Below are positions 18,739-61,203 of a stretch of DNA of 64,000 nucleotides, one piece after another; position 1 is the stretch's first letter; the number at the start of each line of letters is the position of its first letter. The translations under genes and the position numbers were made by a program. The stretch spans positions 60,280 through 124,279 of the forward strand of contig CAWEOK010000016.1 of NCBI GenBank assembly GCA_963810645.1, in the 5' to 3' direction. The stretch comes from an uncultured Solirubrobacterales bacterium (GTDB lineage Bacteria; Actinomycetota; Thermoleophilia; Solirubrobacterales; Solirubrobacteraceae). The notes below the pieces were generated by a model. That model saw only the letters and a program-made list of their open reading frames with translations, was not told the DNA's origin and searched no databases.

Positions 18739-20154
18739 TCAGACCCCGCCCGTCTGGGCCGGCTCCGGGACGGTCAACGCCTCCGCGACTCGCTCCAACC
18801 CCACGCCGCGCGAGCCCTTGACCAGCACCGTATCCCCGGGCCTGACCAGCTTCTCCAGCAGCTCGGCGGCGGCGTCTGCATCGGGCACTGCGTGGGTCTC
18901 GCCTGCGAATGTCTTGGCCATCTCGGATGCGATCCCGCCGACTGTGATGAGCACGTCCACCCCGTTTTCGGCCGCGTACTCGCCGATCTCGCGGTGGTAG
19001 CGACCCGCTTCTCGCCCCAGCTCGAGCATGTCCCCGAGCACCGCGACCTTGCGCCCGGGCGTCGTCGTCGCAAGGTCGTCGATCGCGGCTCGCATTGACA
19101 TCGGGTTGGCGTTGTAGCAGTCCTCGATCAGCACTCCTCTTCCTCCCGGCAGCTCTTTGCGCTCGCCGCGCATCTTCGAGAACCGCACCCTAACCTCGCC
19201 TTCGGGCGTAACCCCGAGCGCCCTTGCCGCCGCCACGGCCGCAGGCAGATTCCTCTGCAGGTTGACCGCCTGTTTGAACGACACTTTCAGGACGATCTCC
19301 TCGCCGCCGTCGTCGATCACCGCCTCCCCGTCCTCGTTGCATCCCTTCAGCAGCACATCGCCGCCCGGGCCGAACGTGACCGTCTCCACGTCCTTTCGGC
19401 GATACGGCTCCAGTAGCGGCTCATCCGCCGGTACGACCACGGTCGTTCCGGGCGCCAGCTCTGCGATCAGCTCGGCCTTGGCCTCGGCCACCCCCTCGAT
19501 CGAGCCCATCTGCTCCAGGTGCACGGGCCCCACGTTGACGATCACCCCCACGTCCGGCTCGGCGATCTTCGTCAGCTCGGCGATCTGGCCCTTCCCGCGC
19601 ATCGCCATCTCGAGCACCAGCGCCTCGGTCTTTGCGGGCGCACTCAGGATCGCCAGCGGCAACCCGATCTCGGTGTTCTGATTCTCCGGGCTCGCGACCG
19701 TTTTGAGGTGCCCAGCCAGCAGTGCCGCGACGATGTCCTTGGTCGAGGTCTTCCCCGTCGATCCGGTCACCGCCACCACCCTTGCGCCGTCTTCCCGCAG
19801 CTCCTTCAGCCATGCCTTGGCCAGCTCTTGTAGCCCTTCCAGCGGGTTTACGTGTGCGAGCACCACGCCTTCCAGATGCACCCCATCCCCCCCGTCGTCC
19901 TTTGCACTTGCGATCGACTTCGCGTGCTCGGGTTTGACCAACACCCCCCATGCCCCGGCCTGCATTGCCTGCACCGCATACCTTCCGCCGTCCGCGTGCT
20001 CGCCCTCCAGACCGACGAACAACTCGCCCGGCCCGACCGTCCTCGAGTCGATGCTCACGTTTTCGGGTCCGGTTGGTCGTGCTTGCCCTCGTGGCCGACC
20101 CACGACTTTTGCCCCGGCCGCTTGCGCGACCCTCTCGATCTCCCAGATCCTCAT
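18739..20154 (-). CDS. murF: UDP-N-acetylmuramoyl-tripeptide--D-alanyl-D-alanine ligase
   Basis: VTGSTGKTSTKD (Mur ligase P-loop), between murE and mraY. Confidence 0.9.
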   Translation of the reverse strand: MRIWEIERVAQAAGAKVVGRPRGQARPTGPENVSIDSRTVGPGELFVGLEGEHADGGRYAVQAMQAGAWGVLVKPEHAKSIASAKDDGGDGVHLEGVVLAHVNPLEGLQELAKAWLKELREDGARVVAVTGSTGKTSTKDIVAALLAGHLKTVASPENQNTEIGLPLAILSAPAKTEALVLEMAMRGKGQIAELTKIAEPDVGVIVNVGPVHLEQMGSIEGVAEAKAELIAELAPGTTVVVPADEPLLEPYRRKDVETVTFGPGGDVLLKGCNEDGEAVIDDGGEEIVLKVSFKQAVNLQRNLPAAVAAARALGVTPEGEVRVRFSKMRGERKELPGGRGVLIEDCYNANPMSMRAAIDDLATTTPGRKVAVLGDMLELGREAGRYHREIGEYAAENGVDVLITVGGIASEMAKTFAGETHAVPDADAAAELLEKLVRPGDTVLVKGSRGVGLERVAEALTVPEPAQTGGV

Positions 20155-21722: not shown

Positions 21723-21731
21723 ACGCTGATG

Positions 21732-44339: not shown

Positions 44340-45512
44340 CTAGCGGACATAGAACACGATCCTCGACGTTCCACGGGCCGGCGTCGTGTAGTTGCCGGCG
44401 GCGTCGGTCGCCGCGATGTCAAGCACATACCGGCCGGGAGGTAGCGATTCGGGCAGCAGGTATGAGAACTGACCGCTGCTCGACACCTTGAACGTGCTGC
44501 CCGTACCGCAGCGCGCTCGCACGAACCGGGTAGTGACGCCGTCGAATGCGTAGCAGCGACCTCGGTACTCGCGGCGCAGTTCAAGGCCGATCGAGGTGAC
44601 GTTGGTGTGCGCGAGCACCGTTCCCGAGAGCACCCGTGGGGCGTGGCCACGCTTGTAGGTGTGTCCGTCGATCAGGCTGGTCAGCCTCGGCACGAGCGCG
44701 TACTCGCCTTTGTAGGAGGGGACGACTGTCGTGCTGCCCGTGGATGTGGAGGCGGCCGACGAGCTGGTCGAGGTCCGGGTGCCGCACGTGCCGTCGTTGC
44801 CGTTGTGCACACAGATGTTGGCCTCGGTGCGAATTGAAGGGGACACGCTGGACGAGCCGGTCACATGCAGCGAATATTCACCGGGCGCTCCGAACGTCAG
44901 CGTGGCATGGCCACCTGCATCGGTCGTAGCGCTCACACCGCCGCCTGCAACAGTGGCGCCGACTGCCGGCGAGGCTTCTCCCTTGGAGTTGTACTGCTTG
45001 ACAATCACGTTGACCGCTTCGCCGATGTTGGCCGCCGTTGGCACTTCGACGCCAAGAGGATTAGGGCATTCTGTCGCTGTTTCAGAGCAGGGGGAAAACA
45101 GCACTTCTTGACCGGCTTCCGGTTCGGCTTCGCATGCTCCTACTTCCGACGCCGCGTGATTGACCCAGAGCTCCCAGTAGTAGCCACTACCAAAAGCGTG
45201 TTCCTCTCCCTCGATTGCATAGACCTCGTACTGACTGTATGAGGCATCCCAAGGACCGCCCCAATTGCCGCTGGTGGCGAGTTGCAGCGCACCGAGAGCA
45301 CTGGTCCCGGCACAGGAGTCTGCTGGTGTGCCGTCCTTGACAACGGGTTCCGTTGTTGTGGTCACCTGTGTCGCTGGGAGCAGGGTTTCGTTTAGACCCT
45401 CAACCCTGACGGTGACGGACGCTGGTCCGGCAGCCAAAGCTGTTGATGCAGACACGAATATCCCAAGACACGCGATGCCCAGCGCCAACGAGATACGACG
45501 AGATAGAACCAT
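44340..45512 (-). CDS. secreted multidomain protein: DUF4430-like domain, Ig-like/CarboxypepD_reg-like beta domains and a Ser/Thr linker
   Basis: The ATG at 45510-45512 has a GGAAAGGGG RBS. Signal peptide MVLSRRISLALGIACLGIFVSASTALA, then VTVRVEG.NETLL...GTSALGALQ...YYWELWVNH...GQEVLF. The 438-aa maximal ORF start falls inside the riboswitch. Confidence 0.65.
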   Translation of the reverse strand: MVLSRRISLALGIACLGIFVSASTALAAGPASVTVRVEGLNETLLPATQVTTTTEPVVKDGTPADSCAGTSALGALQLATSGNWGGPWDASYSQYEVYAIEGEEHAFGSGYYWELWVNHAASEVGACEAEPEAGQEVLFSPCSETATECPNPLGVEVPTAANIGEAVNVIVKQYNSKGEASPAVGATVAGGGVSATTDAGGHATLTFGAPGEYSLHVTGSSSVSPSIRTEANICVHNGNDGTCGTRTSTSSSAASTSTGSTTVVPSYKGEYALVPRLTSLIDGHTYKRGHAPRVLSGTVLAHTNVTSIGLELRREYRGRCYAFDGVTTRFVRARCGTGSTFKVSSSGQFSYLLPESLPPGRYVLDIAATDAAGNYTTPARGTSRIVFYVR

Positions 45513-45550
45513 TGAGCCAACCCCTTTCCACGAGGGCCTAGTGGGCTTGT

Positions 45551-45715
45551 GGTCGGAGGCAGGTCTCCTGGCTCCCGGGCCTACCCCTCCGCGCCTTCCC
45601 GATCGCCGTACGCGGATCGGTGGCTGCGCGCCTGATCGACACGCCGCGGTGGGCATCCCCGGTCACAGTGGCGGGTCCGCGCCGGATTCTCACCGGCTTC
45701 CCTACACCACCGACC
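45551..45715 (-). promoter_or_regulatory. cobalamin (B12) riboswitch
   Basis: The minus strand reads GGTCGGTGGTGTAGGGAAGCCGGTGAGAATCCGGCGCGGACCCGCCACTGTGACCGGGG...GGGAAGGCGCGG...GAGCCAGGAGACCTGCCTCCGACC. This contains the conserved core and a perfect B12 box (AGCCAGGAGACCTGCC at 45573-45558). GGTCGG and CCGACC can close P1. It ends 39 nt before the operon's first ATG. Confidence 0.88.
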
Positions 45716-45825
45716 GTATGAACGTCGCGTATCGTACTCGACCCGGCGGTGGGTGTGCAGTGTCGGGTTGGTTTTGGGGGATGCTTCGCCGATTCCGCTC
45801 GCTACGTCAGTACACCGCGCCCCGT

Positions 45826-47085
45826 CTAGGATTGTTCGCCGGGCAGTTCCCCAGCTACATCTCCCAGTGCGACACGCTGGTCGTAGTCGAGCACAGGCCG
45901 TTCCTTCAGCAACCGGCGGGCGATATCGAGGTCGTCTGGGCGCCCGAACGTCAGCGCCGCCACGACCCGCCCGTCCTTGAGATACCAGTTCGTGAACTCG
46001 CCGTCCCGCATCGACCCGCGCACGATCTCCTCGTCCCACTCATTCGCCGGCCCGACGTATTCGAGCTCGCCCAGACCGGCCAGCACCGAGTAGAAATACG
46101 GGACCACCTCGTGCGCCACATCGCGCCCGAGCATGTTCAGCGCCGCCGTCTTGCCGTGGTTGAACGCCACATCCCAATGCTCGATCCGCAGCGACCGGCC
46201 GTGCAGCACCGACTCGTACTCGCACACATCCCCGGCGGCGAACACACCCGGCACGGAGCTCTCCAGCCGCGCCGAGCACGCGATCCCACCGCTCTCGCCG
46301 ATCGTCAACCCCGCCCGCTGGGCGAGCTGGACATCCGGCGTCACGCCCGCGCCGATCACGACCGCGTCCGTATCCAGCTCCAGCCCGCCGCGCGTCACGA
46401 CTCTGCCGACACGCCCGTCCGCGCCCTCGAACCGCTCGAGCTCATCCTCGCCGTAGACCGTCACACCCGCGCCTTCGAGCAGGCCCTGGATGTATCGCCC
46501 GACGCGCTCCCCGAACCCGCGTTCCAGCGTGGCGTGCTCCTGCATCACGATCGTGCAGCGCTTGCCGATCGCGGTCAGGGACGCGGCGACCTCGCAGCCG
46601 ATGTACGACCCGCCGATCAGCACGACCTCCTCGGCATCGGCCACCCCCGCCCGGATCGAGTCGGCGTTGCCGAGCGTACGCAGATAATAGATCCCCTCCA
46701 GATCGCACCCCTCGACGTTCAGCCGCCGCACGTTCGCCCCCGTCGCGATCAGCGCCTTCCCGAACTCGACCTCCTCTTTGCTCGACAGCTTGGCCGTACG
46801 CGCGTCGAGGTCAAGCCCGGCCACGCTCGTGCGGGTCAGCAGCTCGATGTCCTGCTCCCCCCACCACTCCTGCGGCCTGAACAGCGGCTCCTCGCGAGTC
46901 TCCTCCCCGCGCAGATACCCCTTCGAACACTCCGGCCGGTTGTACGGCGCGTCTTGCTCGCGCCCGACGAGCAGCACCTCGCCCTCGGCGCCCTCCTCGC
47001 GCAGCCAGCGCGCGCAGTTACCGCTCGCCAGTCCCCCACCGATCAGCAGATACTCGACCTTGCGCGCCGCCGTCACACCGTCCAC
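45826..47085 (-). CDS. FAD/NAD(P)-dependent oxidoreductase, ferredoxin-reductase / AIF-like (pyridine nucleotide-disulfide oxidoreductase fold)
   Basis: YLLIGGGLASG, VVLIGGSYIGCEVA and FAAGDV motifs. The likely GTG start is at 47085 or 47076; the 461-aa maximal ORF adds an implausible N-terminus. Confidence 0.85.
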   Translation of the reverse strand: MDGVTAARKVEYLLIGGGLASGNCARWLREEGAEGEVLLVGREQDAPYNRPECSKGYLRGEETREEPLFRPQEWWGEQDIELLTRTSVAGLDLDARTAKLSSKEEVEFGKALIATGANVRRLNVEGCDLEGIYYLRTLGNADSIRAGVADAEEVVLIGGSYIGCEVAASLTAIGKRCTIVMQEHATLERGFGERVGRYIQGLLEGAGVTVYGEDELERFEGADGRVGRVVTRGGLELDTDAVVIGAGVTPDVQLAQRAGLTIGESGGIACSARLESSVPGVFAAGDVCEYESVLHGRSLRIEHWDVAFNHGKTAALNMLGRDVAHEVVPYFYSVLAGLGELEYVGPANEWDEEIVRGSMRDGEFTNWYLKDGRVVAALTFGRPDDLDIARRLLKERPVLDYDQRVALGDVAGELPGEQS

Positions 47086-47130
47086 TCTATAGCCAGACAC
47101 CCGCCACCATGTATGCCCCGCCACATCTGA

Positions 47131-47151
47131 GACGGGGCAGGACGCCCCGTC
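47131..47151 (-). terminator. GC-rich hairpin (8-bp stem, 5-nt loop) downstream of the T4SS-like operon
   Basis: GACGGGGC-aggac-GCCCCGTC lies about 65 nt after the stop at 47216. It has no U-tract, as in the I-shaped terminators common in high-GC genomes. Confidence 0.3.
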
Positions 47152-47215
47152 CCAATCCCGCTCTGTCCGTGCCCTCACCTGCGAGGATGCGGCCCAACCC
47201 CTCCACCCCAATCCC

Positions 47216-48481
47216 CTACAGACCCGGCGGATGCCTCACCGACCAATCCGCCCAGGTCGGGATGTAGCTGAGGATCCGCCAGCGCGGGCCGTCTTCGTTT
47301 TTGTTCGGCCCCACGTCGGTCCCGTTGTGGCTCGTGTCCAACCGCAACCCCGCGATCACGACGAACACGTGCGGCGTCGGCTCATCGGTCGCGTAGATCG
47401 TCACCCAGCGCCCCGGCCCCGGTTCGCCCCAGCCCACGTAGTCCTGCGCGAGCGGGTTGTCCCTGACGATTTCCGTCAGCGGCCGCACGCCTGAGCGATA
47501 CAGCACGTAGTTGACCGTGCTCGAGCAGTCCTCTTCGCTCGCGCCCAGCGGATCCGGATGACCGCCCGGACCGTAGGGCAGTTCCTGCAGCTCGTTCCCC
47601 GCCACGATCATCGCCTGCACCGTCGCCGGCACCCCCGCGGGGATCAACGCGACGTGACCGTCATCGGGATCCAGTCGCGCCTGTTCGCCTGCGATGAACC
47701 GCACCGGCGTATTGGTTTCGCCGGCCAGTCGTGTGTCCGCGCCGGTGATGCCGCCTTCGACGCCTTCCCCTCCTGCGCCGCTCCCTCCCGCACCCGGCGC
47801 CGGCACGGTCGAGGATCCGCGGTACTTCGCGGCCCAGCTTTCGACCTCCGCCACGTACCACCACGCGTGGTTGTAGGCATATATCGCGGCCTTGTAGTCC
47901 TTCGGCGCGCCCGAGGCGCGCAGGTAGTTGGCGGCGCCGTAGATCGCATCGGCCGGGTTCCAGCGGTCGGGCACGCCACCGGCGGGGGCCACCCCGTACT
48001 CCGCCCAGGTCGAGGCGAGAAACTGCATCGGCCCGCCGGCCCCGGCCGAGTTGACCGCCCCCTCCCGCGTGCACGACGGATCCGGGTCGCGCCCGTGATC
48101 GCACTCGACCTTGCCGATCCCGGCGAGCACCGCCCAATCCAGACCATAGTGCTGACCCGCCGCCTGATACAGACGTAGGTATTCCGGCGGGATTTCGGCC
48201 TTCGCGAGGGCTGATGGGCCGTCCGTCTCATCAGCGCTCACGGCTGTGCCGGTGAGACTGCCAAACCCGCCCACGCCGACGAGCATCATCAACGTTATCC
48301 CCAGGAACAGCGCCGCCAGCGCGGCGGCGCCTGCCGCGAGCGCACCGATCGCCAACGGCAGGCGGGGCAGTCGAGACAGGCCGGGCAGAGGCGCCTCTGC
48401 GGCCACCGCCGCGATCCTGATCCCCGTCATGATCTCGGATCCCCTCGTCCTTCCGGATCCCGTCGCCGTATCCACCGTCAT
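47216..48481 (-). CDS. bifunctional cell-wall hydrolase: N-terminal TM, SLT-like lytic transglycosylase, NlpC/P60-like domain (CwlT/VirB1 analogue)
   Basis: GIGKVECDHG...GAGGPMQFLASTWAEYG...AIYGAANYL...YAYNH (SLT) and C-terminal EEDCSSTVNYVLYRSG...HVFVVI (Cys/His peptidase pattern). ATGA overlap with the upstream gene. Confidence 0.72.
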   Translation of the reverse strand: MTVDTATGSGRTRGSEIMTGIRIAAVAAEAPLPGLSRLPRLPLAIGALAAGAAALAALFLGITLMMLVGVGGFGSLTGTAVSADETDGPSALAKAEIPPEYLRLYQAAGQHYGLDWAVLAGIGKVECDHGRDPDPSCTREGAVNSAGAGGPMQFLASTWAEYGVAPAGGVPDRWNPADAIYGAANYLRASGAPKDYKAAIYAYNHAWWYVAEVESWAAKYRGSSTVPAPGAGGSGAGGEGVEGGITGADTRLAGETNTPVRFIAGEQARLDPDDGHVALIPAGVPATVQAMIVAGNELQELPYGPGGHPDPLGASEEDCSSTVNYVLYRSGVRPLTEIVRDNPLAQDYVGWGEPGPGRWVTIYATDEPTPHVFVVIAGLRLDTSHNGTDVGPNKNEDGPRWRILSYIPTWADWSVRHPPGL

Positions 48482-51243
48482 CGCCGCCGCTCCCAGCCCA
48501 GCTGGCGCTTGCGCCCGGCGGCGACGTCATGCACATCGCGCATCACACTCGACTCGCCACCCGGCCTGGGCGCACTCGGAACGCCGTTCGACCTACCGCC
48601 TCCTCGCCGGTCATGTTGGGGAACGTCGGGTTTCGGGCGTCTCGACGGCGGTTTGAGGGAGGAGGGCAACTCGTGGCCTTCCTCCTGCACCTCACGCTCG
48701 AGCGAGCCGTCGAACTGCTTGTTCGCTTTCTGTTGCTCGCGCCCCTTAAGTGAGCCCTCGCCGCTTGCGGCAACCTCTCTGGCGGCCACGTCCAATCCCT
48801 TGCGCACCGCCAGCTCGCTGTCGATCTCTCGCCGCACCGCCTCCTGACCCCGGTCGTCGAGCGCTTCATACCTCCGCCGTCCGTAACCCACGACCCCTGC
48901 CATCCCCGCGTAGTCGCGCTCCCCTGGGGGCAGCGCCGCCTGTTCATCGAGGAGGCGCGCGCCCTGCTTGGCCCGCGTGCGCGTGTACACGTTGCCCGTC
49001 GCGCTCTGTGCACGCGTGCCGTCCTGCACGGTCTGCCGTGCCGCGGCGAGCGAGTCCCGATCGCCTGCGATCTCTCCCCGCAGGCGACCCATGTGCCCCT
49101 GCAACTCCACGGCACGCTGTCTGTGGGCCTCCTCCTCGACGCCGAACCGGTCCGCCGCACGCTTACGCTCGGAGTATGCGTAGACCGTGGGGTCGCTCAA
49201 CGCCGATTCGCGCGCGCTCTTTGCCTCGGCCGCCTCCATCTGAGCGGTGGCGTGTTCGCCCTGCATCTGCTCCAGCTGTGCACGTTTAGCCGATATCCGT
49301 GCTTCGGTCTGCGGGGCCGCCTGTACGAGTGCGTGCGCCTCCCGGTGCTCGCTCTCCAGCATGCGTTTGACCTGTCCGTCGGCTATCCCCTGAGCCCGTT
49401 TGAGGCCCGCCTGCGCCAGTTTGCGCCGGCGCTCCACGCTCGGCGGCGGCGTGCGCAGCTTGTCTTTGACCCATTTCCCGGCGCGCACCACCTCGGGTGG
49501 TTGCTGAGCCCGTTCACGAGCCCGCCGCAGCAGCGAGCGGTGTTCGTGCTGGTGGAGCCCGCGATGACCGTTTTTCGCGAAGCCGTCCACCTGGTGACGT
49601 TTGAGATACAGCCACCACCACATCATCGAGACGAGCAGCCATTGGGCGGCCCAGCCAAACGTGTGGACCTCCAGCAGCGTCCGCTGCATCAACAGCACGA
49701 CACCCAGCAGGAACGAGTAGATCAGCTTCGCGCAGACGGCGCCCAGCAGCCGCGTCGCCCAAGCCCTGAACGCAGCCCGGCCACCGTCCCCCAGCGCGGG
49801 AGCGATCACCGCCGCGGGCGCGAACAGCAGAAAGAACAGACTGAACAGCGCGGCTGTCAGCAGGCGCAGGGCGATGAAGCCGAGCACCGACACCATCCCG
49901 AGAACGCCGACCCAGAACAGACACAGGCCGAGGACGCGCCACAGCGTCCCGTCCCCGGTCCGGAACTCCGCCTCGCTGGCCGTCGGCCCATGACATGGTT
50001 CTTCCGAGCCACCACACAGCGCGTTGAACAGCGAGCCGGATTCGTTGATCGAGTTACGCTGCGGTCCGTTGGCGGGCAGCGCCAGGAACAGTTCGCCGTT
50101 CGTACGCGCGCCATTCAGCAGTTCCACGCCCTGGCTGCCGATCTTGGCCCGTTCCTTGGTCGCGATCTGGCGCGCCGCCGCGGCCAGTTGCGGGTCCAGG
50201 TGCTTGGATTCGCACCAACCCACGTCGCCGAACTCCATGAAGCACCACGGCCCGCCGATCGCGCCTCTGAATATGCTCCGCATGCTTTCCTCAAACGTGC
50301 GACCGGAATGAGCCGGCGAGCCCGTGGCCACAGAGGCGAGCGTGCCCAGGCTGGCCTCGTTGGCCCACCCATCCAGCGCGCCGATGGTGCCCAGTGGATT
50401 GACGATCACCCACAATCCGCCCATCATCATCAACGCCATCAGCGCCACCTCGCCAAGTGTCTGGGCGACCCGCCGACGGACGATCCCGTGATACAGCGCG
50501 AACACCGCTGCGATCGCCAGCGCCAGCACGAGCCACGGCTGCGTAAACGAGGCCTGTGTTTCACGTAGCCCCCGCGCGATGCTCCCGATCTGGGAGGTTT
50601 CGAACAGGTCGATCGTGTAGCACCACTCCAACACCACGATCACCGCATGCACGACCGACACGAGCAGCGTCCAGCTCCACTGGACCGGGTTCAGGATGTA
50701 CACGTCCAAGTCGTTTGCCACATCCGTCACTCCCGTGTTGATGTGCACGTCGAACCCGTAGTTGCCCGTCGGTGCCTGCCCTGCCTCAAAGCCCGAGATC
50801 CTGCAGTCGCGCGCGGCGTGCGACGACAGTTCGCCTTCCAATCCATCGCGGCATAGGTGGCTGCCCAGCCCGTTGGCCACGAGCGGGTCGCCGCCGCTCT
50901 GCGACACCGAAGCCGAGGCTTCTTCTTCGGGGGTCGTCCCCGATCCGCCCGTGCTCAGCGGCGGCTTGCTCGGTGCCCGCGCGGGGCCTTTCGCCGGAGC
51001 GTTCTTCGACGGCGGAGCGTTGTTCGCCGGCGGTTGGGTGTGCGTCGGAGTGGGCGCCCGCGCCGGGCCTTTCGCCGGCGATCGGCTTGGCGCTCGTGCC
51101 GTGGTTCGGGCCGAGGATTGCGACGAGTAGAACACCTGTGCGGCGCTCGCCGCCTGTGTGCCCGGCGATATGCCCACCCACATGAACACAGCCATCCACG
51201 CCGGCACCAGCAGACTTACCGCTGTACCGCGCCGGCACGCCAC
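48478..51243 (-). CDS. large polytopic membrane protein, VirB6/TcpH/ConG-like by position and topology, with a 374-aa charged coiled-coil-like C-terminal tail
   Basis: Signal-like N-terminus, Pro-rich segment, about seven hydrophobic helices, then a Glu/Arg/Ala/Gln-rich tail. The candidate GTG at 51241-51243 lies 2 nt after the VirB4-like stop. The start is uncertain (an alternative ATG is at 51195). Confidence 0.55.
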   Translation of the reverse strand: MACRRGTAVSLLVPAWMAVFMWVGISPGTQAASAAQVFYSSQSSARTTARAPSRSPAKGPARAPTPTHTQPPANNAPPSKNAPAKGPARAPSKPPLSTGGSGTTPEEEASASVSQSGGDPLVANGLGSHLCRDGLEGELSSHAARDCRISGFEAGQAPTGNYGFDVHINTGVTDVANDLDVYILNPVQWSWTLLVSVVHAVIVVLEWCYTIDLFETSQIGSIARGLRETQASFTQPWLVLALAIAAVFALYHGIVRRRVAQTLGEVALMALMMMGGLWVIVNPLGTIGALDGWANEASLGTLASVATGSPAHSGRTFEESMRSIFRGAIGGPWCFMEFGDVGWCESKHLDPQLAAAARQIATKERAKIGSQGVELLNGARTNGELFLALPANGPQRNSINESGSLFNALCGGSEEPCHGPTASEAEFRTGDGTLWRVLGLCLFWVGVLGMVSVLGFIALRLLTAALFSLFFLLFAPAAVIAPALGDGGRAAFRAWATRLLGAVCAKLIYSFLLGVVLLMQRTLLEVHTFGWAAQWLLVSMMWWWLYLKRHQVDGFAKNGHRGLHQHEHRSLLRRARERAQQPPEVVRAGKWVKDKLRTPPPSVERRRKLAQAGLKRAQGIADGQVKRMLESEHREAHALVQAAPQTEARISAKRAQLEQMQGEHATAQMEAAEAKSARESALSDPTVYAYSERKRAADRFGVEEEAHRQRAVELQGHMGRLRGEIAGDRDSLAAARQTVQDGTRAQSATGNVYTRTRAKQGARLLDEQAALPPGERDYAGMAGVVGYGRRRYEALDDRGQEAVRREIDSELAVRKGLDVAAREVAASGEGSLKGREQQKANKQFDGSLEREVQEEGHELPSSLKPPSRRPKPDVPQHDRRGGGRSNGVPSAPRPGGESSVMRDVHDVAAGRKRQLGWERRR

Positions 51244-51245
51244 CG

Positions 51246-53750
51246 TCAGGCAACCCCGGGCGTAGTCGAGAACGCGCGCAGCAGCGACGGCGCCACCACG
51301 TCCACCTGAATCGCCTCCACCCGCCCGGAGTGGTCGCGAAACAGACATCTGCCCGCCTCGAACTCGAGCAGGCTCTGACGCGCGCGGCGGTCCTCGGAGT
51401 CCAGCCCCAGCAACTGCAACGCCCGCCCCGCCTCGGCCTCCGAGCGCATCCCGAACACGAACGTCGCACCGATCAGGTTCTCCAGCGACTCGCGCTCTCC
51501 GACGAGCGCGTCGGTCACGAGCTGGGTCGAGATGATCGGCACCGCCAGCTCCGAGCGGCCCATGCGCTGCAGCGAAGCCAGCAGCTGCCGGCCGACCGGG
51601 TCGCCCAGCAATCGCCAACCCTCATCGAAGCTGAACAACTTCAGCCGCCCCCGCTCTGACCCGAGCAGGTGCATCGCGAACATCGCGATCAGCCGCACGA
51701 TCTGCTCGCCCACGCGCTCGGCCTGCGAGTACTCGGCCCTGCTCGTCCCCTGCTGGGGTCCCGGCAGGTCGCGGATCGGCAGGTAAGTGACCTGGCTCTG
51801 GCCGACCGGCGGCAGTCGTACCGCGGGATCCGCGAACCCGAGCTGGGTCAGCCCCGAGCGGGCGTAGACCTCGAGCGTCTTACCCACCTGCGCGTCGGTC
51901 TCATCGCCCTGCTCCAGCGCGCGCACCACCTCCAGGCAGGTCGGCTCGCTGGAGCGCCGCAGCACCCGATCTACGGCTCCCACGACCGCGGTCTCCCAGG
52001 CCGGCTCTGCGCGCCCGGGCAGCAGGTCGCGCAGAAAGGACACAGCGGCGTCCTGGCGCAGGTGCTCGGGCGCCACCCGGAGCGGGTCGAGCACGCCGCG
52101 CAGCGCCGGGTCGGGCTTCAGCGTCACGCACTCGGTGTGCGGCGCCACCTCCTCCAGCAGATGAAACCGATGGTCGCCCTTCGGGTCGCAGTCGATGATC
52201 CGCGCGCCCTGCAGGAACCCCTCGTACTTGAGCTTCTGATCGAGCGTCGTCTTGCCCGAGCCGAGCGCGCCGACGCTGAGGATCGTTGTGTTGCGGTCGC
52301 TGTCCGAGCCCTCGCGCAGGTTGAACCTGACAGGTTGGCGCGAGCCCGTGAGCGTGTGCCCGAGATAGAACCCCCCGCGCGAGCCCGCCTCGTGCGCGGC
52401 GGTCGGCATCATCGCCGCCACCTGCTCGGGCGTCAGCGTGTCGTCATACCCCGCCACCCGCGTGCGCTGGCCAGGCAGGTGCTGCATGAACAGCGGCAGC
52501 TGATCCCCGAGCGGGCGGTGCAACCGGATCTCCCCGTACGCGCGCCGCGTCATCTCCACGCGCTCCTCGAGCTCCTCCTCGTCCTCGGCCCCGATCGCGA
52601 GCGCGAGCGTCGCGCGCAGCAACGGTGGCCGGCTGGAGGACTGCAGATACGCGAGCAGGTCGCGGGCCTCCTGGGTGCGCTGATACCCGAGATCCGTCAC
52701 CCCCTGCTCACCGTCTGACTCGGCGCGCACGATCTGATCGGCGTCCTGGATGCGCCGGCGCGCGATCCGCAGCGCCAGACCGTTGGGCAGGTAGCGCGCG
52801 TTCAGCGACAGATCGACCCCGAACGGCAGCGACTCCGGCGGCGCGAACATCAGCTCCACGCGCGCGCCCGGGAACTGCGCCCGCTCGGGCAGCGCTCCCA
52901 CGATGAGCTGCGCCTGCCAGCTCGTGCCCATCTCTGACTCGATCTTCAGCGCGCGGCCGCGATGCTCCACGTAGGAGTCCATCCAGCGCAGCACGTCGCC
53001 CTCCAGCGGTGCCAGCGTGGCCTCGCCGTTGCGCTCGAACACGAGCGCTCGCGGCTCGTGCAGCCCATCGATCTGTGGCTCGCCGAGACCTCGGCAGAAC
53101 GCCCGGCGCACGAGCCACTGCAGCTCAACCCCGCGCGCCTGGCGGACCGGCAGGTAGTCGGCCAGGCGCGCGTGCGCCTGATCGGCGCGTACCCGGGCGC
53201 GCTCCAGCTCCGCGACCTTCAGCACGCGCCGGTCGCGTACTGAGAATGCTTGCCTGACCTCCCGCAACCACTCACGCGGATGACGTTCGGCGACACGCGA
53301 GACGTACGCCGCGACATCGCGCTCGGGCTCGCGCAGGCTGACGATCAGGAACACCTCCGGCCGTGCCCTGCCGACGTTCTGGAGACGGTTGTAGTGCTCT
53401 TCCAGATAGGCGTCGTTCGCGCGCGCGTGCGTGCGCGCGCGTGTGTATATGTGCCTGTGCCTGTGCCCGTGTCGTGCATGCACTTCATCCGACCCAACCC
53501 CCGCCACGTCCACGCTCATCTCCAGCTCGCGCGCATACCGCTCAACATCCCAGCGCCGTCCCACGCGCAGGATCTGCACGTCGGCCTCGATCGCCTCCAG
53601 CGCACCGAGCAGCGCCAGGAACCGTGAGCGCTTGCCGTCCTCGGACAGCCACTCATAGGACTCGCTCTCCACGGCAAACGCAGCCCAGCCGTCATCGAGC
53701 GAGTCGGCGAACACGCAGTTGCCGTACACGAACCCGATCGGCGGCTTCAC
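51246..53750 (-). CDS. virB4: VirB4/TraC/ConE-family type IV secretion ATPase
   Basis: Walker A is SVGALGSGKTT and Walker B is KLFSFDEGWRLL (the DEAW-type motif typical of VirB4), followed by IISTQLVTD. About 830 aa. The GTG at 53748-53750 makes a GTGA overlap with the upstream gene. Confidence 0.85.
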   Translation of the reverse strand: MKPPIGFVYGNCVFADSLDDGWAAFAVESESYEWLSEDGKRSRFLALLGALEAIEADVQILRVGRRWDVERYARELEMSVDVAGVGSDEVHARHGHRHRHIYTRARTHARANDAYLEEHYNRLQNVGRARPEVFLIVSLREPERDVAAYVSRVAERHPREWLREVRQAFSVRDRRVLKVAELERARVRADQAHARLADYLPVRQARGVELQWLVRRAFCRGLGEPQIDGLHEPRALVFERNGEATLAPLEGDVLRWMDSYVEHRGRALKIESEMGTSWQAQLIVGALPERAQFPGARVELMFAPPESLPFGVDLSLNARYLPNGLALRIARRRIQDADQIVRAESDGEQGVTDLGYQRTQEARDLLAYLQSSSRPPLLRATLALAIGAEDEEELEERVEMTRRAYGEIRLHRPLGDQLPLFMQHLPGQRTRVAGYDDTLTPEQVAAMMPTAAHEAGSRGGFYLGHTLTGSRQPVRFNLREGSDSDRNTTILSVGALGSGKTTLDQKLKYEGFLQGARIIDCDPKGDHRFHLLEEVAPHTECVTLKPDPALRGVLDPLRVAPEHLRQDAAVSFLRDLLPGRAEPAWETAVVGAVDRVLRRSSEPTCLEVVRALEQGDETDAQVGKTLEVYARSGLTQLGFADPAVRLPPVGQSQVTYLPIRDLPGPQQGTSRAEYSQAERVGEQIVRLIAMFAMHLLGSERGRLKLFSFDEGWRLLGDPVGRQLLASLQRMGRSELAVPIISTQLVTDALVGERESLENLIGATFVFGMRSEAEAGRALQLLGLDSEDRRARQSLLEFEAGRCLFRDHSGRVEAIQVDVVAPSLLRAFSTTPGVA

Positions 53751-54355
53751 CGTCCTTCCCTTCCGCTGGCCGCCCCGCGCACATCCAGTCGCGCACCCGG
53801 GGCCAGCGCGATCACCTGGCCGCTGTCCAGAGCCCTCCCTCCAGGCAGCTCGCACAGGGTCAACCGGGCCCCGCCCAACAGACCACGGCCCTCGACTCGC
53901 TCGTGCGCGGCGGTGATCAGCACCGCTCCGGGACCGGTGTAGCGCAGCCTGCGTATCGCCCCGTCAGAGCCGTCGGGCAACATCAGGACCTCCTGCGGAT
54001 ACCAGCGCTCCCCGGGCGCGCCGCAGGGACGCACTCCGGAGAACGTGCGCGGACCTACGCCGTAGCGCAGCAGCGCATACGCAGCCTGGTGAAACGGCCG
54101 GCCCTCGATCCGGATCACGCTCAACACCGTCGCACCGGCGGCCGGCAGCGCGAGATCGCGCAGGTACCAGGGCAGCGCCCCGATCGCTGCTCCCACCACG
54201 GGCAGGCTCCCGGCGATCAGGGTCGCCACCAGGATCGCGAGGAAGTAGACGACGCCTCGCACCGGGATCCCGCCTGGGTTCAACCGCAGTTGATCGACGC
54301 GGTAGATGCGTCGCTCCAGATCGAACACGGCGCGATATGAGCGGATCTCGATCAC
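53747..54355 (-). CDS. TcpE/PrgI-family (VirB3-like) conjugation membrane protein
   Basis: MIEIRSYRAVFDLERRIYRVDQLRLNPGGIPVRGVVYFLAILV... matches the TcpE N-terminal pattern (xYxxxWxxERxxYxxxxxxLP), followed by two TM helices. It lies immediately upstream of VirB4. The RBS is GGGAGG. Confidence 0.7.
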   Translation of the reverse strand: MIEIRSYRAVFDLERRIYRVDQLRLNPGGIPVRGVVYFLAILVATLIAGSLPVVGAAIGALPWYLRDLALPAAGATVLSVIRIEGRPFHQAAYALLRYGVGPRTFSGVRPCGAPGERWYPQEVLMLPDGSDGAIRRLRYTGPGAVLITAAHERVEGRGLLGGARLTLCELPGGRALDSGQVIALAPGARLDVRGAASGREGR

Positions 54356-54401
54356 GATCGACCTCCCGTCTCCGAGGCTCGGATCCTCACCTGCGGCACT
54401 C

Positions 54402-54464
54402 GCATCGCTACCTCGTGTACGTGCATCGCCATCTCGCGCACCCGCATCGTTGTCCCGCGCCTAC
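54402..54464. repeat. three imperfect 21-bp tandem units, each starting GCATCG, in the intergenic spacer
   Basis: GCATCG occurs at 54402, 54423 and 54444 (exact 21-bp phasing): gcatcgctacctcgtgtacgt / gcatcgccatctcgcgcaccc / gcatcgttgtcccgcgcctac. Confidence 0.6.
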
Positions 54465-54907
54465 CCGAACAACGACGTGACCGTGCCTTCCAGCAATTTC
54501 AAACCGGCCGGGGTGGCCAACAGCACCGCGACGATCCCCACCACGAACACGCCCGCCGCCTCCTTGAAGTCGCGGCGGAAGGCCAGCACGATCGAGGCGA
54601 TCGCCAGTGCGAGCCCGATCAGGCTCATCGCGATCGTGCGTCCTGTGCTGTCCGCTTTCTGGGCGGCCGATTCGAGCGAGTTACCCGTCGTTTCCGTAGA
54701 TTCCTTAGAAGTCGCCTTCTGGGCGCTTCCCCGATCGATGCTTCCCTGCTGGGCGCTGTCCTGCTGGATGCTCGACTGAGCGGGCGCTTCGACTGCGGCC
54801 TGCGCGGCGGGCGCACCGGCGAGGAGGCACACGCCCGCGAGCAGCAGGATCGCCCGGGCGCGGGTGTAGCGGGTCTTGGGGAGTGGGAGAACAGCGGAGA
54901 GCTGCAT
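54461..54907 (-). CDS. small secreted/membrane protein with VirB2/TrbC-pilin-like topology (signal peptide, polar linker, two C-terminal TM helices)
   Basis: The signal peptide ends in ...AGAPAAQA, followed by a Gln/Ser-rich linker, then IAMSLIGLALAIASIVLAF and GVFVVGIVAVLLATPAGL. The RBS is GAAAGGAA. Located between the TcpC-like and TcpE-like genes. Confidence 0.45.
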   Translation of the reverse strand: MQLSAVLPLPKTRYTRARAILLLAGVCLLAGAPAAQAAVEAPAQSSIQQDSAQQGSIDRGSAQKATSKESTETTGNSLESAAQKADSTGRTIAMSLIGLALAIASIVLAFRRDFKEAAGVFVVGIVAVLLATPAGLKLLEGTVTSLFG

Positions 54908-54951
54908 GCGGGTTCCTTTCTGGTTGTGGTGATGTCAGGAGTCGGGTCCAG

Positions 54952-55863
54952 TCATGAGTCGGGGTCCATCTGAATGGCGGACACCTCCCAGCGGCCCTGC
55001 ATGCGGGCGACGTCCAGTTCGTAGGCGAGCGTGTACCTGGCGCCGCGCGTGTCCTGGGCCTGCACGACGGCGAGCACCGCACCCGGTCCGCCGGCCCAAT
55101 CCAGGCGCTGCACCGATTCCAGGCTCAGCGCCTGCGCCGGCAGCGCGACGCGCGCTTCCCCGGTCAGATCCGCTGCTAGCTCCGAGCCCGAGGCCGACAG
55201 GTAGTTGCGCAGGGCGCGGTCCACGACCGTCGCGAGCGCCGGTTCGCTGACTTCGCGCAGGTGCGCCTGCGCCTGTGCTTGGGCGGGACCGCTGGCTGGG
55301 GCGCCCACGAATGCTGGATACCCGCCAAGCGCGAGGCTCCCGGAGGCGGTGCGCACGACCGGCACCGTCAGGTACTGCAGGCCCGCGTCGTTGGTCTGGG
55401 CGGCGACCGTATACACGTGCTCGGGGCGGGCGGGCGCCGATTCCAATTCCCGCTCTTGCACGACTTCGGTCCATTCCACGCGCTGTTCGCCGCTCGAGGG
55501 CGGCTGTAGGCCCGCGCCGGGTTCGATCCCGGGACCGGCATACGCGGCCAGCGCACGTTCGTGCGCCTGCGGTTCGGCGGCGTTCCAGGTCAGGTAGCTG
55601 CGCGTGAACTGCGAGGCGAACCCCTCGGCCGCGAGATCGGGCGGCGCCGGCGCCGGCGCGGTCCTCGGTATGACCGGCCGCGGCGGGTCGATCGCAAAGC
55701 GCGCGCTCGCCGCGAGCCCCACGACCGCCACAGCGCTCAGCAGATAACGGGTCCATTCGCGCGCCGCGCGGATCCGCCACAGCGGCTTTGCATCAACCGT
55801 CACTCGCGTGCGCACGTGCGCGTTACCGGCCGTCGCCTCCTCGATCCAGGGCGTCCCGCGCAT
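54952..55863 (-). CDS. TcpC/ConB-like (VirB8 analogue) bitopic protein
   Basis: From the ATG at 55861-55863: a short cytoplasmic N-terminus, one TM (YLLSAVAVVGLAASARF), then two repeated alpha+beta (NTF2-like by pattern) halves (FASQFTRSYLTW... and VDRALRNYLSA...). The stop and start share 1 nt (TGATG) with the upstream gene. Confidence 0.55.
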   Translation of the reverse strand: MRGTPWIEEATAGNAHVRTRVTVDAKPLWRIRAAREWTRYLLSAVAVVGLAASARFAIDPPRPVIPRTAPAPAPPDLAAEGFASQFTRSYLTWNAAEPQAHERALAAYAGPGIEPGAGLQPPSSGEQRVEWTEVVQERELESAPARPEHVYTVAAQTNDAGLQYLTVPVVRTASGSLALGGYPAFVGAPASGPAQAQAQAHLREVSEPALATVVDRALRNYLSASGSELAADLTGEARVALPAQALSLESVQRLDWAGGPGAVLAVVQAQDTRGARYTLAYELDVARMQGRWEVSAIQMDPDS

Positions 55864-56642
55864 CAGTGCTCGAACCCGAACTCGCTCTGGGCCCGTGCTG
55901 CGGGGGCGGTTTCGGTGGGCGTGCTCTGCGCCGCGCTCGCTGCCGGTGCGGAGGTCTCCTGGGGAGTGCTCGCGACGGGTGTGTAGGTGGCTTGCTCGGG
56001 CTGTGGTTCGCGAGTCGGCGCCGCTTGCGCAACGCGTACGTTCGCGGCCTTCGCTGCAACAGCCGCACCCGCGCGCGGCCTGCCCTGCCCGCTTCGCGCC
56101 ACGCGAGTCGATTCGCCTCGTGCCGAAGCCCGCTGCGTATCGCCCCGATGGCCCCCGTCCTGCCAAGCACCGACCCTGTGCACAGTCTCCCGCCGCAGCG
56201 TGACGCGCGTTGGAGACGCCATGACGACACGTGGCCCACCACCGATCGACGGCGCGCTGCGCGCGGGCGTGGATACGGCGACGACAGCGATCTGACGATC
56301 GCCAGGATGTGAGCGCAGCCCGACGAGTCCCACCGTCACACCGACCGTCCCCACCGCACCGGTCAGCGCGGCAGCCCCCGCGAGCCGGCGCAGTCTGCGC
56401 TCCCGCGAGATGCCCGCCCCCACCGTTGCTGCCGGTATGACCGGCGGCGCATATTGCCCCGCTATATGCACGGTCATCTCGGTCAGCTCGGGCGCAGCCA
56501 CCTCCCTCAGCTCGGGCGCAGCCACCTCCGTCAGCTCGACCATCGGCGCGTCCCAGTCGGCGAACGGATCGACCCCGGCCAGGTACTCATCCTCGCTGTA
56601 GACCCGGTAGACCGCGCGGTGGCGGCGCTGCAGGAGCGTCAT
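55863..56642 (-). CDS. bitopic membrane protein of unknown function; first gene of the T4SS-like operon
   Basis: Cytoplasmic N-terminus with a duplicated ELTEVAAP/ELREVAAP unit, a TM (LAGAAALTGAVGTVGVTVGLVGL) and an Ala/Pro/Thr/Gln-rich C-terminus. Confidence 0.5.
   Translation of the reverse strand: MTLLQRRHRAVYRVYSEDEYLAGVDPFADWDAPMVELTEVAAPELREVAAPELTEMTVHIAGQYAPPVIPAATVGAGISRERRLRRLAGAAALTGAVGTVGVTVGLVGLRSHPGDRQIAVVAVSTPARSAPSIGGGPRVVMASPTRVTLRRETVHRVGAWQDGGHRGDTQRASARGESTRVARSGQGRPRAGAAVAAKAANVRVAQAAPTREPQPEQATYTPVASTPQETSAPAASAAQSTPTETAPAARAQSEFGFEH
56483..56539. repeat. 2.4 copies of a 24-bp tandem repeat inside the 259-aa gene
   Basis: tcagctcgggcgcagccacctccc / tcagctcgggcgcagccacctccg / tcagctcga. 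Confidence 0.9.
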
Positions 56643-56682
56643 GCGAGCACCGCCCGGGTGACATAGCTGACGTAAAGAACAG

Positions 56683-56725
56683 GCGGCCGGAAGCCGAGAT
56701 GGGGAGATATCCGGCTTCCGGCCGC
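56683..56725 (-). terminator. strong hairpin (14-bp perfect GC-rich stem, 15-nt loop) followed on the minus strand by a T-rich tract; candidate terminator/attenuator between the sigma gene and the T4SS-like operon
   Basis: GCGGCCGGAAGCCG ... CGGCTTCCGGCCGC. On the minus strand it is followed by cctgTTCTTTAcg. Confidence 0.5.
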
Positions 56726-56811
56726 TCGCGGATGGGCATCGCCGTACGGTCGTCCGTTCGATCGACTGCCGGCGTCCCAGGGGACGCGCCTATGAGTGGG
56801 GGGAGATATGT

Positions 56812-57726
56812 TCATAGGTGGGTCCCTGTCTTCTCTCCCGACCCGGATCCCAAAACGGGACACTTCTCGCGAAAAGTTTTTTCTGCGGCGGCGAGATGCG
56901 CCCCCGCCAGTCCCTCCTCGCCCTGGACCGCATCGCCGTGCTCGGCCGCCCCCGCCACCTCCGGCGCCGCCTCGCCCTGCACCACCCCGTCCCGTGTCTC
57001 CGTCTCCCGTGCCGCCTCGTCCAAGCCTTCAACCGCCGGCGTCTGCTCGTTCCCGGCCAATTCGTCCAGCATCGCCCGCAGCCGCACACGTGCGCGCTGG
57101 GTGACCTTGCGGTGCTTGGCGAGCGTCCACCCAAACGTGGCGCAGAACTCTTCAGCCCCCATCTGCAACCCGATCTGACACGCGAGGACGAGTCGCTGGT
57201 CGGGGCTCAGCCCGTGTGCCAACCGCTCAACCGAACGCAGCTCGTGGCGCAGAAGCATGCGCTGCTCGATGTCGGCCCTGCGATCGGCCAGCTCGATTTC
57301 CTGCTCGCCTACGCCGCCCAGCGACATCGCCCCGTCGAGGATCGCCTGGGCCGGGCTGCGTCCCGACAGCGCGCGGCGACGGTCAATGATCCGCGAGTGA
57401 AAGCGCAGCTCCAGCGTGTTGCGCAGGTGCGCGCGGCTGGAGTACCGCAGCTCCCCGCGACGCGCCTGGGCCACCAGCTCGACGGTCGCCTGGCTGTAGC
57501 AGTCCTCCAGATCGGCATGGCTCAGCCGATGACGGTGCACCGACAGCAGGGTCCGGCGCGAGGCGTGCGCCACGAGCGCGACCTCCTCGGCGGGATCGCG
57601 CCCCGCTGCACCCGATCCCCCCGGACCGGCCGCGGGCCAGATGCCGCCCAGAGTTCGTGCTGGCGCCGGGAATCGGGTAGACACATAGGCATGTCGCTCC
57701 CGGCCACCAGCAGACCCCCCCTCCAA
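56812..57726 (-). CDS. sigma-70 family (ECF-like) RNA polymerase sigma factor with an acidic C-terminal extension
   Basis: Region-2-like LSHADLEDCYSQATVELV and region-4 HTH-like LSPDQRLVLACQ...GWTLAKHRKVTQRARVRLRAML. The true start is probably downstream of 57726, because yihY starts there divergently. Confidence 0.55.
   Translation of the reverse strand: MEGGSAGGRERHAYVSTRFPAPARTLGGIWPAAGPGGSGAAGRDPAEEVALVAHASRRTLLSVHRHRLSHADLEDCYSQATVELVAQARRGELRYSSRAHLRNTLELRFHSRIIDRRRALSGRSPAQAILDGAMSLGGVGEQEIELADRRADIEQRMLLRHELRSVERLAHGLSPDQRLVLACQIGLQMGAEEFCATFGWTLAKHRKVTQRARVRLRAMLDELAGNEQTPAVEGLDEAARETETRDGVVQGEAAPEVAGAAEHGDAVQGEEGLAGAHLAAAEKTFREKCPVLGSGSGEKTGTHL

Positions 57727-58781: not shown

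Positions 58782-61203
<2,422 letters not shown>

Follow-up and report, generated by a model that had tools for sequence, protein, structure and literature searches.

We have analyzed a stretch of 64,000 nt of DNA from an uncultured Solirubrobacterales bacterium (Solirubrobacteraceae), corresponding to positions 60,280 to 124,279 of the forward strand of contig CAWEOK010000016.1 in assembly GCA_963810645.1. We refer to this whole stretch as the window; its homologues come from uncultured Solirubrobacterales and Solirubrobacteraceae of the class Thermoleophilia (Actinomycetota). The subject of this study is a cluster of seven co-directional, mostly overlapping genes on the minus strand, running from 56642 to 47216, whose open reading frames (ORFs) are all intact. 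Between them they appear to supply all the parts of the channel of a monoderm type IV secretion system (T4SS), each under evolutionary constraint, with a VirB4 protein as the sole ATPase. An earlier note on this DNA had described seven co-directional, mostly translationally coupled genes in an order resembling that of ICEBs1 and pCW3. The gene models bear out both the coupling and the order: orfA and tcpC meet in a TGATG junction, tcpE and virB4 in GTGA, and the polytopic gene and the hydrolase gene in ATGA, while virB4 and the polytopic gene are separated by 2 nt. The cluster and the two elements upstream of it are as follows.

56812 to 57573, minus strand: sigL, a divergent sigma-factor gene resembling the extracytoplasmic function (ECF) type, directly upstream of the cluster and co-directional with it
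56679 to 56766, minus strand: conserved structured RNA element of 88 nt in the gap between sigL and orfA
55863 to 56642, minus strand: orfA, bitopic membrane protein of 259 amino acids with one transmembrane (TM) segment
54952 to 55863, minus strand: TcpC/ConB-type, VirB8-like bitopic protein of 303 amino acids with an N-terminal TM segment
54461 to 54907, minus strand: VirB2/TrbC-like pilin candidate of 148 amino acids at the TcpD/ConC position
53747 to 54355, minus strand: TcpE/ConD-type, VirB3-like membrane protein with a C-terminal extension of about 100 amino acids
51246 to 53750, minus strand: VirB4-family ATPase (TcpF/ConE type) of 834 amino acids
48478 to 51243, minus strand: large polytopic VirB6/ConG-like protein (Poly) of 921 amino acids with at least six TM segments
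47216 to 48481, minus strand: membrane-anchored peptidoglycan hydrolase at the VirB1/CwlT position, with an SLT/MltB-like domain and a conserved C-terminal domain

The identity of the ATPase is secure. It matches PF12846 with E = 5.6e-45 and 154 bits (cut-off 27.5), and its best NCBIfam model is the pCW3 ATPase TcpF (E = 2.4e-50). The Walker A motif GALGSGKT and the Walker B residues D709 and E710 are invariant in close orthologs; when relatives from mobile elements are included, Walker A and E710 remain invariant and D709 nearly so. A phmmer search with the protein against the sequences of the PDB gave no match. An AlphaFold2 model calculated from a 52-sequence alignment that included the mobile relatives reached a mean predicted local distance difference test score (pLDDT) of 86.1, whereas 14 near-identical sequences gave a pLDDT of 36, and that model was discarded. 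The top 13 Foldseek matches of the retained model are all full-length chains of R388 TrwK/VirB4 (E = 1e-24 to 2e-18, about 860 aligned columns), and a Thermoanaerobacter VirB4 gives a TM-score of 0.74 on its domain, whereas TrwB, a type IV coupling protein (T4CP), is found only at about 1e-6. The predicted fold is the two-domain fold of TrwK/VirB4, distinct from that of the coupling proteins. The protein encoded by tcpC matches PF12642 over profile positions 1-230 of 231 (E = 5.3e-9, 36.6 bits, cut-off 27), and is 33-41% identical to its counterparts in five of the eight outgroup loci described below (L081 to L085). Thus the TcpC-like and VirB4 identities proposed in the earlier note both stand above the family cut-offs.

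The TcpE-like protein, the polytopic protein and the pilin candidate have family matches below threshold, and their identities are supported by topology, by position and by homology to counterparts in the relatives. The TcpE-like protein matches PF12648 with E = 8e-4 and 20.3 bits (cut-off 29.9). We assign it tentatively from its position, from its overlap with virB4 and from 34-41% identity to counterparts in L081 to L085; precomputed PF12648 matches are carried by the counterparts in L081 and L083 (unmarked) and in L082, L084, L085 and L088 (weak). Poly has an N-terminal signal-like TM segment, a Pro/Ala/Ser-rich linker, at least five further TM segments and a charged cytoplasmic tail of about 320 amino acids. 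It has no Pfam match; the NCBIfam model for the CD3337/EF1877 mobilome membrane protein recognizes it with E = 6.6e-13 and 48 bits against a cut-off of 120. It is 29-32% identical to its counterparts in L081 to L085, and the protein at the same position in L088 matches PF04610 (TrbL).

The pilin candidate begins with a signal peptide, with cleavage placed between …AQA and AV; then come a Ser/Gln-rich extension, which is variable, and a hairpin of two TM segments joined by an RRDFKE loop. Its match to PF04956 (TrbC/VirB2) has E = 3.3e-4 and 21.2 bits, under the cut-off of 27.9, and five of 30 members of the protein family match that model. The mature hairpin is near-invariant across the loci, and L081, L082, L084 and L085 carry a pilin-like protein of the same architecture at the same position. 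The candidate could alternatively be a TcpD-like second subunit of VirB3 type. The extension between cleavage site and hairpin (54640-54800, residues about 37-90) consists of some 45 Ser/Gln/Ala-rich amino acids. Between species it differs in both length and sequence, and the mobile relatives have no such extension in their pilin-like proteins.

The last gene had been described as encoding an SLT plus NlpC/P60 hydrolase. The SLT domain is clear from Pfam (PF01464, 25.9 bits, cut-off 21.3; SLT_2 PF13406, 30.4 bits, cut-off 24.3) and from a PDB profile search, in which MltB/Slt35 was matched at 6e-9 by the SLT part only. The NlpC/P60 domain was not detectable: residues 250-421 gave no match in Pfam (E up to 5), NCBIfam or the PDB profile search. 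In this C-terminal domain Cys319 (within the motif DCSS), His371 and Asp382 are invariant and His385 is present, a spacing that we take to be compatible with the NlpC/P60 family. Judged from these residues, the domain may be NlpC/P60-like.

The first gene, orfA, matches no family in Pfam or NCBIfam. Its product has a conserved N-terminal motif RAVYRVYSEEEYLAG, the TM segment, a disordered Pro/Ala/Ser-rich region and a conserved C-terminal SEFGFE[RH]; beyond the motif, the TM segment and the C terminus there is little conservation, and a homologue is detected by BLAST in 12 loci. No link was found to the bitopic genes of the mobile relatives. Three tandem 24-nt repeats at 56468-56539 encode repeats of the type VAAPELxE, and most orthologs are without them.

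How is this cluster distributed, and what holds it in place? One genome per prokaryotic species was scanned for relatives of VirB4, giving 366 stretches that contain one, and we compared the best 80 of these 366 loci. All 80 come from metagenome-assembled genomes (MAGs) of Solirubrobacterales/Solirubrobacteraceae, with VirB4 identities of 77-92%. Wherever the contig reaches, the cluster lies at the same chromosomal position in the order MFS transporter, HxlR regulator, lon, yihY, sigL, orfA, TcpC, pilin, TcpE, VirB4, Poly, SLT hydrolase, oxidoreductase, usually followed by the B12 transporter genes. The identities below are medians relative to the window, and the ratios of nonsynonymous to synonymous substitution (dN/dS) are Nei-Gojobori medians over up to eleven close species pairs.

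Lon: identity 88%, dN/dS 0.108
VirB4: identity 80%, dN/dS 0.096
Oxidoreductase: identity 76%, dN/dS 0.18
SLT hydrolase: identity 71%, dN/dS 0.21
YihY: identity 69%, dN/dS 0.17
TcpC: identity 64%, dN/dS 0.19
TcpE: identity 61.5%, dN/dS 0.26
Pilin candidate: identity 61.5%, dN/dS 0.20
SigL: identity 57%, dN/dS 0.30
Poly: identity 45%, dN/dS 0.34
OrfA: identity 38%, dN/dS 0.42 (two pairs only)

Every gene of the cluster is under purifying selection, and VirB4 as strongly as Lon. The species that share the synteny are well separated, their Lon proteins being only 81-93% identical to that of the window. Pairwise distances of VirB4 correlate with those of Lon with r = 0.49, against r = 0.44 for the oxidoreductase and Lon. 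The correlation is only moderate, and shows VirB4 behaving like a neighboring chromosomal gene and not a strict co-phylogeny. Since its distances track Lon as those of the oxidoreductase do, we rule out both a recent insertion and a decaying remnant. Searching the window and the 80 loci (1.6 Mb) by tblastn with queries from the mobile relatives gave no match to a T4CP, a relaxase-like protein, a Toprim/primase or ArdC.

The conserved block extends upstream of orfA. The earlier note had counted a sigma-factor gene among the housekeeping flanks. SigL has no Pfam match, and reaches the NCBIfam model TIGR02937 (sigma70-ECF) with E = 9e-5 and 22.1 bits, against a cut-off of 42.9, over positions 21-164 of 165. 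An ortholog with more than 60% protein coverage stands at the same position in 56 loci. The gene is part of the conserved block and not an unrelated housekeeping neighbor. In the mobile relatives no sigL homologue is detectable, and their own sigma-like genes show no link to it.

In the RNA element a linker joins a small hairpin to a long, GC-rich one whose loop carries AUCUCCCC; nhmmer located the element at the same position in 64 loci. RNAalifold predicts 22 pairs, 12 of which have compensatory changes, and there are many G-U pairs on the sense strand only. A covariance model gives 96 bits for the sense strand compared to 26 bits for the opposite strand. It finds one copy in the window and no copy in the mobile relatives, so that no regulon can be traced. 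The element matches no Rfam family. In the window the hairpin is followed by CCTGTTCTTT, a terminator-like T-rich tail that most relatives are without. A TTGAAC...CGAT stretch also shows compensatory pairing, for which promoter and RNA structure are indistinguishable. In its simplest reading the element is a candidate leader or attenuator RNA for the operon. We also considered an origin of transfer (oriT), which is less likely given the sense-only G-U pairs and the difference of 96 and 26 bits between the strands. Both sigL and the RNA element seem to be additions to the module.

The earlier note had reported no relaxase, coupling protein, integrase, tRNA or direct repeats near the cluster, and this result can be extended to the whole 64 kb. 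Pfam scans of the called ORFs, outside a murD-sized gap at 16.4-17.8 kb, show core chromosome throughout and no relaxase, T4CP or integrase/recombinase. There are no tRNA genes in the window, and the only direct repeats flanking the cluster in the manner of att sites are 17-19-mers at chance level. No oriT is recognizable in the window, where the only conserved non-coding element behaves as a sense-strand RNA. The GC content of the window is about 69%; that of the cluster is 0.694 compared to 0.693 for the window, as the earlier note had judged by eye, and its tetranucleotide usage falls inside the window's own spread. The composition of the cluster is native. GC skew is strongly negative (to -0.22) at 17000-22000 and at 45000-54000; in both stretches the genes run on the minus strand (mraY-murF-murE in one, the T4SS cluster in the other), and the skew probably reflects the coding strand. 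With increasing coordinate the surroundings are as follows.

Lowest coordinates (Pfam): aminotransferase, chorismate mutase, ScpAB, tRNA synthetase and glycine cleavage genes
Next upward (Pfam): dcw cluster, from ftsZ to mraW
Next upward (Pfam): rho, dihydropteroate synthase, pntAB
Next upward (Pfam): ECF/Cbi transporter operon with DUF4430 proteins (DUF4430/Big_13, ECF-CbiQ)
45541 to 45726, minus strand: cobalamin riboswitch (RF00174, 85 bits), preceding the B12-uptake operon
Between the B12 operon and the T4SS cluster (Pfam): ferredoxin-reductase-like oxidoreductase
Highest coordinates, past the cluster (Pfam): yihY/BrkB, lon, HxlR regulator, MFS transporter

The riboswitch lies where the B12-uptake operon borders on the oxidoreductase gene. 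Of the housekeeping flanks named in the earlier note, the B12 operon is confirmed by it, and the sigma factor, as described above, is only weakly sigma-like and belongs to the conserved block.

Where did the cluster come from? In an exhaustive HMMER search the full-length relatives of VirB4 form a graded series from 52% down to about 30% identity, and those of plasmids (ConE/TcpF) are only about 25% identical. The nearest VirB4s outside the window clade are 40-50% identical. We examined eight such outgroup loci (L081 to L088), one of which (L086, a 6.5-kb contig) is too short to show its flanks. Six of the eight (L081, L083, L084, L085, L087 and L088) share the core order inside obvious mobile elements: bitopic protein, TcpC, a small protein with signal peptide and two TM segments, TcpE, VirB4, polytopic protein, SLT hydrolase. 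A full VirD4-type T4CP lies 0-6 kb from the core in L081, L084 and L088. Their accompanying genes differ, and depending on the locus the types of primase also include RepB.

L081 (Conexibacter sp. W3-3-2): Toprim, ArdC, a TIR gene, a VirD4-type T4CP and a Replic_Relax-like gene; the last is found in this locus only, as a faint precomputed match
L084: T4CP overlapping the end of the SLT gene; methylase, SMODS
L088: ParA, TrbL-family VirB6, Toprim, T4CP
L087: DnaB, ParA
L083 and L085: SSB, primases, sigma-like genes; in L083 also a T4CP, as a fragment only

Defense-type cargo lies by the transfer genes in L081, L083 and L084, namely TIR, HEPN_Swt1/DUF499, SMODS, and N6/N4 methylase with a ResIII helicase. 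In L082 (444-7186, Thermoleophilaceae) the pilin, TcpE, VirB4, polytopic and SLT genes are followed by the pstSCAB operon, and there is no T4CP; the contig starts inside the cluster. This may be a second, independent host-resident copy.

The clade of the window VirB4 is tight, with a median pairwise identity of 82% and a minimum of 73%. It is therefore a host-resident branch among diverse mobile-element systems, and has lost the DNA-processing genes that come after the hydrolase gene in the mobile relatives. The locus appears to be an old, fixed derivative of an actinobacterial conjugation module, lacking a relaxase (MOB-less) and, locally, a T4CP.

Is the cluster, then, the debris of a mobile element or a possession of the host? 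The earlier note had leaned toward a maintained, possibly domesticated apparatus rather than a decayed integrative and conjugative element (ICE), and synteny, dN/dS and the search for pseudogenization in relatives all favor domestication. The fixed synteny, the purifying selection, the native composition and the absence of T4CP, relaxase, primase and ArdC within 10 kb lead us to regard the locus as very probably a domesticated module. We judge it likely that the best explanation overall is an exapted mating-pair-formation (MPF) module of a monoderm conjugative T4SS, whose channel half the host probably took over for its own use.

As to how such a module might work, we tentatively propose, by analogy with studied systems, a pilus or conduit driven by VirB4 and independent of a T4CP. 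In those systems VirB4 draws pilin out of the membrane, and VirD4 is dispensable for pilus assembly. An ancestor of the Solirubrobacterales would have captured the channel half (TcpC, pilin, TcpE, VirB4, the VirB6-like protein and the VirB1-like hydrolase), and the DNA-processing half (VirD4-type T4CP, relaxase, primase, partition and integration genes) would have been lost. The remaining module would have been inherited at a single chromosomal position ever since. We infer that the machine still assembles. The membrane-anchored hydrolase would open the wall; TcpC, TcpE and the polytopic protein would form a scaffold in membrane and wall; and a VirB4 hexamer would pull the near-invariant pilin out of the membrane and assemble it into a short pilus, a pseudopilus or a wall-spanning conduit. 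Expression would be conditional, probably through sigL and the structured leader RNA. Our best guess at the role is a surface filament for DNA capture or uptake, in the manner of ComB, or for cell-cell contact, and not relaxase-driven export of DNA. We rank such a filament above toxin export because a monoderm cell needs no T4SS to release proteins exported by Sec, and because the pilin is conserved and not diversified; the ranking is weakly supported.

Several observations weigh against an exapted pilus or conduit machine. The gene for Poly is cleanly missing in three of the loci (L004, 12460-12532; L007, 12451-12544; L008, 12424-12658), and clean loss of a VirB6-like protein is not what one would expect of a channel or pilus machine that works. 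The gene is still present in L005, which is closely related, so there must have been at least two independent losses, and the remaining genes are still constrained. The identity of the pilin rests on topology and a sub-threshold Pfam match. The locus has no linked gene for a substrate, an effector or competence. The neighborhoods compared span 10 kb either side of each locus, and a T4CP, relaxase and oriT may lie elsewhere in these genomes; Patescibacteria usually encode the T4CP at a distance from virB4 (PMC12102498), and some Solirubrobacteraceae MAGs do encode T4CPs of ICE type. Finally, the survey counts carriers of the locus, and every carrier found is uncultured.

The alternative that survives best is a split system that is still conjugative, in which a T4CP and relaxase encoded elsewhere, on the chromosome or on ICEs and integrative and mobilizable elements (IMEs), would use the fixed channel to move chromosomal DNA or other elements. 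The channel genes are complete for monoderm conjugation, and both the distant T4CPs of other lineages and the ICE-type VirD4 homologues in Solirubrobacteraceae MAGs just mentioned speak for it. Using the VirD4 of a mobile relative as query, we obtained 346 homologues of VirD4-type T4CPs. The family is patchy and diffuse, as is typical of mobile elements: the median identity between pairs is 54%, and only 1.2% of them reach 75%. Among these 346 there is no tight, vertically inherited clade paralleling that of VirB4, which is suggestive and not proof of absence. None of the top T4CP matches lies on a contig equal in size to one carrying the locus, and the mobile relatives have the T4CP right beside the channel genes. 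A universally conserved machine cannot rely on sporadic elements, and we consider a split system unlikely.

A second alternative accepts independence from a T4CP and replaces the pilus or DNA uptake by export or injection of proteins or toxins, for competition or surface remodeling. Protein secretion by Ptl and by Brucella VirB involves no T4CP, and in the Gram-positive S. suis a protease is secreted by the 89K T4SS (PMC12857230). The presence of a dedicated sigma-like regulator suggests that the system is deployed conditionally, and one relative has an RHS toxin gene beside the locus. In that relative (L053, 12163-21400) VirB4 diverges after residue 711 and is followed by a gene for a 1553-amino-acid RHS-repeat/DUF6531 toxin, a helix-turn-helix (HTH) regulator and a Toprim protein. 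An insertion or rearrangement seems to have truncated VirB4 and displaced the downstream half of the cluster, so the toxin gene sits within the very event that disrupts the system. No conserved effector, immunity or chaperone gene accompanies the locus, a Sec-exported substrate would leave a monoderm cell in any case, and the repeated loss of the gene for a VirB6-like translocon fits a translocator poorly. We find protein export improbable as the function of the system.

A conjugative element that integrated here and is now decaying is very hard to sustain as an explanation of the cluster. The T4CP, relaxase and integrase are indeed missing at the locus, three species are without the VirB6-like gene and in one VirB4 is truncated, but the seven ORFs are intact and translationally coupled, dN/dS ranges from 0.10 to 0.42 with VirB4 equal to Lon, the composition is fully native, and a remnant would not survive in identical synteny across dozens of species as far apart as their Lon proteins indicate. 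An ordinary ICE with integrase, att sites, T4CP and relaxase just past the examined region has only the ICEBs1- and pCW3-like gene order in its favor, and can be dismissed in view of the housekeeping flanks over the full 64 kb (dcw cluster, rho, pntAB, B12 transporter, lon), their recurrence in related species and the lack of any tRNA or att-like repeat in the window.

If the exapted module is what we believe it to be, an abundant group of soil Actinomycetota has kept the channel half of a monoderm conjugation system over long evolutionary time. It would provide a natural test case, with mobile sister elements for comparison, a candidate regulator and a candidate regulatory RNA. It raises the question of what VirB4 and a pilin can do without a coupling protein in a cell with a single membrane, and of how the machine of a selfish element is converted into an organ of its host. 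In the literature searched we found no account of a T4SS or VirB4 in Solirubrobacter or Thermoleophilia, nor of a domesticated T4SS in Actinomycetota. Public databases name the proteins only 'ATP-binding protein', 'hypothetical protein' or 'AAA-like domain', and with names so uninformative the system appears to have gone unrecognized.

The locus can be compared with five groups of known systems. The first are the conjugative elements ICEBs1, Tn916 and pCW3 (types MPF-FA/FATA), with which it shares the gene order and channel set: ConB/TcpC, ConC/TcpD, ConD/TcpE, ConE/TcpF, ConG/TcpH and CwlT/TcpG. In contrast to our locus, systems of the ICEBs1/pCW3 type have a T4CP (ConQ/TcpA/VirD4), a relaxase, an integrase and oriT processing, all absent from the window and, for T4CP and relaxase, from the related loci. 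The locus differs further in being chromosomally fixed and vertically inherited, in the distance of its VirB4 from plasmid ConE/TcpF noted above, and in having at the ConC/TcpD position a protein with a cleavable signal peptide that resembles a VirB2 pilin. The closest relatives found are the uncharacterized conjugative elements of Thermoleophilia and other Actinomycetota, L081, L083 to L085, L087 and L088, with the shared core order and VirB4 identities in the 40-50% range. These mobile relatives are diverse where the window clade is tight. They differ from the window in carrying T4CPs (three full, one fragment) and, depending on the locus, primase, ParA, DnaB, SSB, ArdC and defense genes, and in lacking sigL and the RNA element.

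The T4SS of Patescibacteria (the candidate phyla radiation, CPR) is the closest described case, and is MPF-FATA-derived (PMC12102498, PMC12857230). Like our locus it derives from monoderm conjugation and is chromosomal, mostly without a relaxase, and lineage-wide. Its pilins are VirB2-like, as the candidate here seems to be, and it has been read as co-opted for a non-conjugative role (PMC12102498; Wang et al., 2023, through PMC12857230). Patescibacteria are, however, host-dependent epibionts with divergent pilin arrays, and usually have VirD4 homologues somewhere in the genome. Here, by contrast, the genomes are of about 3-4 Mb and have their full set of housekeeping genes, only one pilin is present and it hardly varies, there is no T4CP within 10 kb, and a sigma gene and an RNA element are associated with the cluster.

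T4SSs can function without a T4CP: ComB of H. pylori imports DNA, Ptl of B. pertussis and VirB of Brucella are two-step exporters, and Trw of Bartonella makes pili or adhesins (PMC12857230). As at our locus, these have a channel, a pilin and VirB4 without VirD4 or a relaxase (PMC12857230). They belong to their hosts and serve purposes other than conjugation. ComB also lacks VirB11, leaving VirB4 as the sole ATPase, as here. All four, unlike the present system, belong to diderms and are of type MPF-T with VirB7/9/10 outer-membrane complexes. The systems without a T4CP that are described in a review of December 2025 are all Gram-negative, and the review treats the search for further functions of Gram-positive T4SSs as a question of long standing (PMC12857230). 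Extrapolating from these analogies, one could speculate that the locus encodes the first T4CP-independent T4SS of a free-living monoderm, a host-owned, lineage-wide VirB4/VirB2 apparatus building a pilus or pseudopilus for DNA uptake or cell-cell exchange. If true, it would be the monoderm counterpart of ComB in H. pylori, under the control of a dedicated sigma factor and of a leader RNA not described before.

Finally, chromosomal T4SSs without a neighboring relaxase or integrase have been recognized as a category, to which our locus conforms. Such MOB-less systems are regarded as exaptations and not as decay, and are expected in free-living bacteria (Guglielmini et al., 2011, 2013; PMC3548315). 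That category is a statistical observation; to it the present locus adds synteny across a lineage, data on selection, a mobile sister group and the loss of the T4CP.

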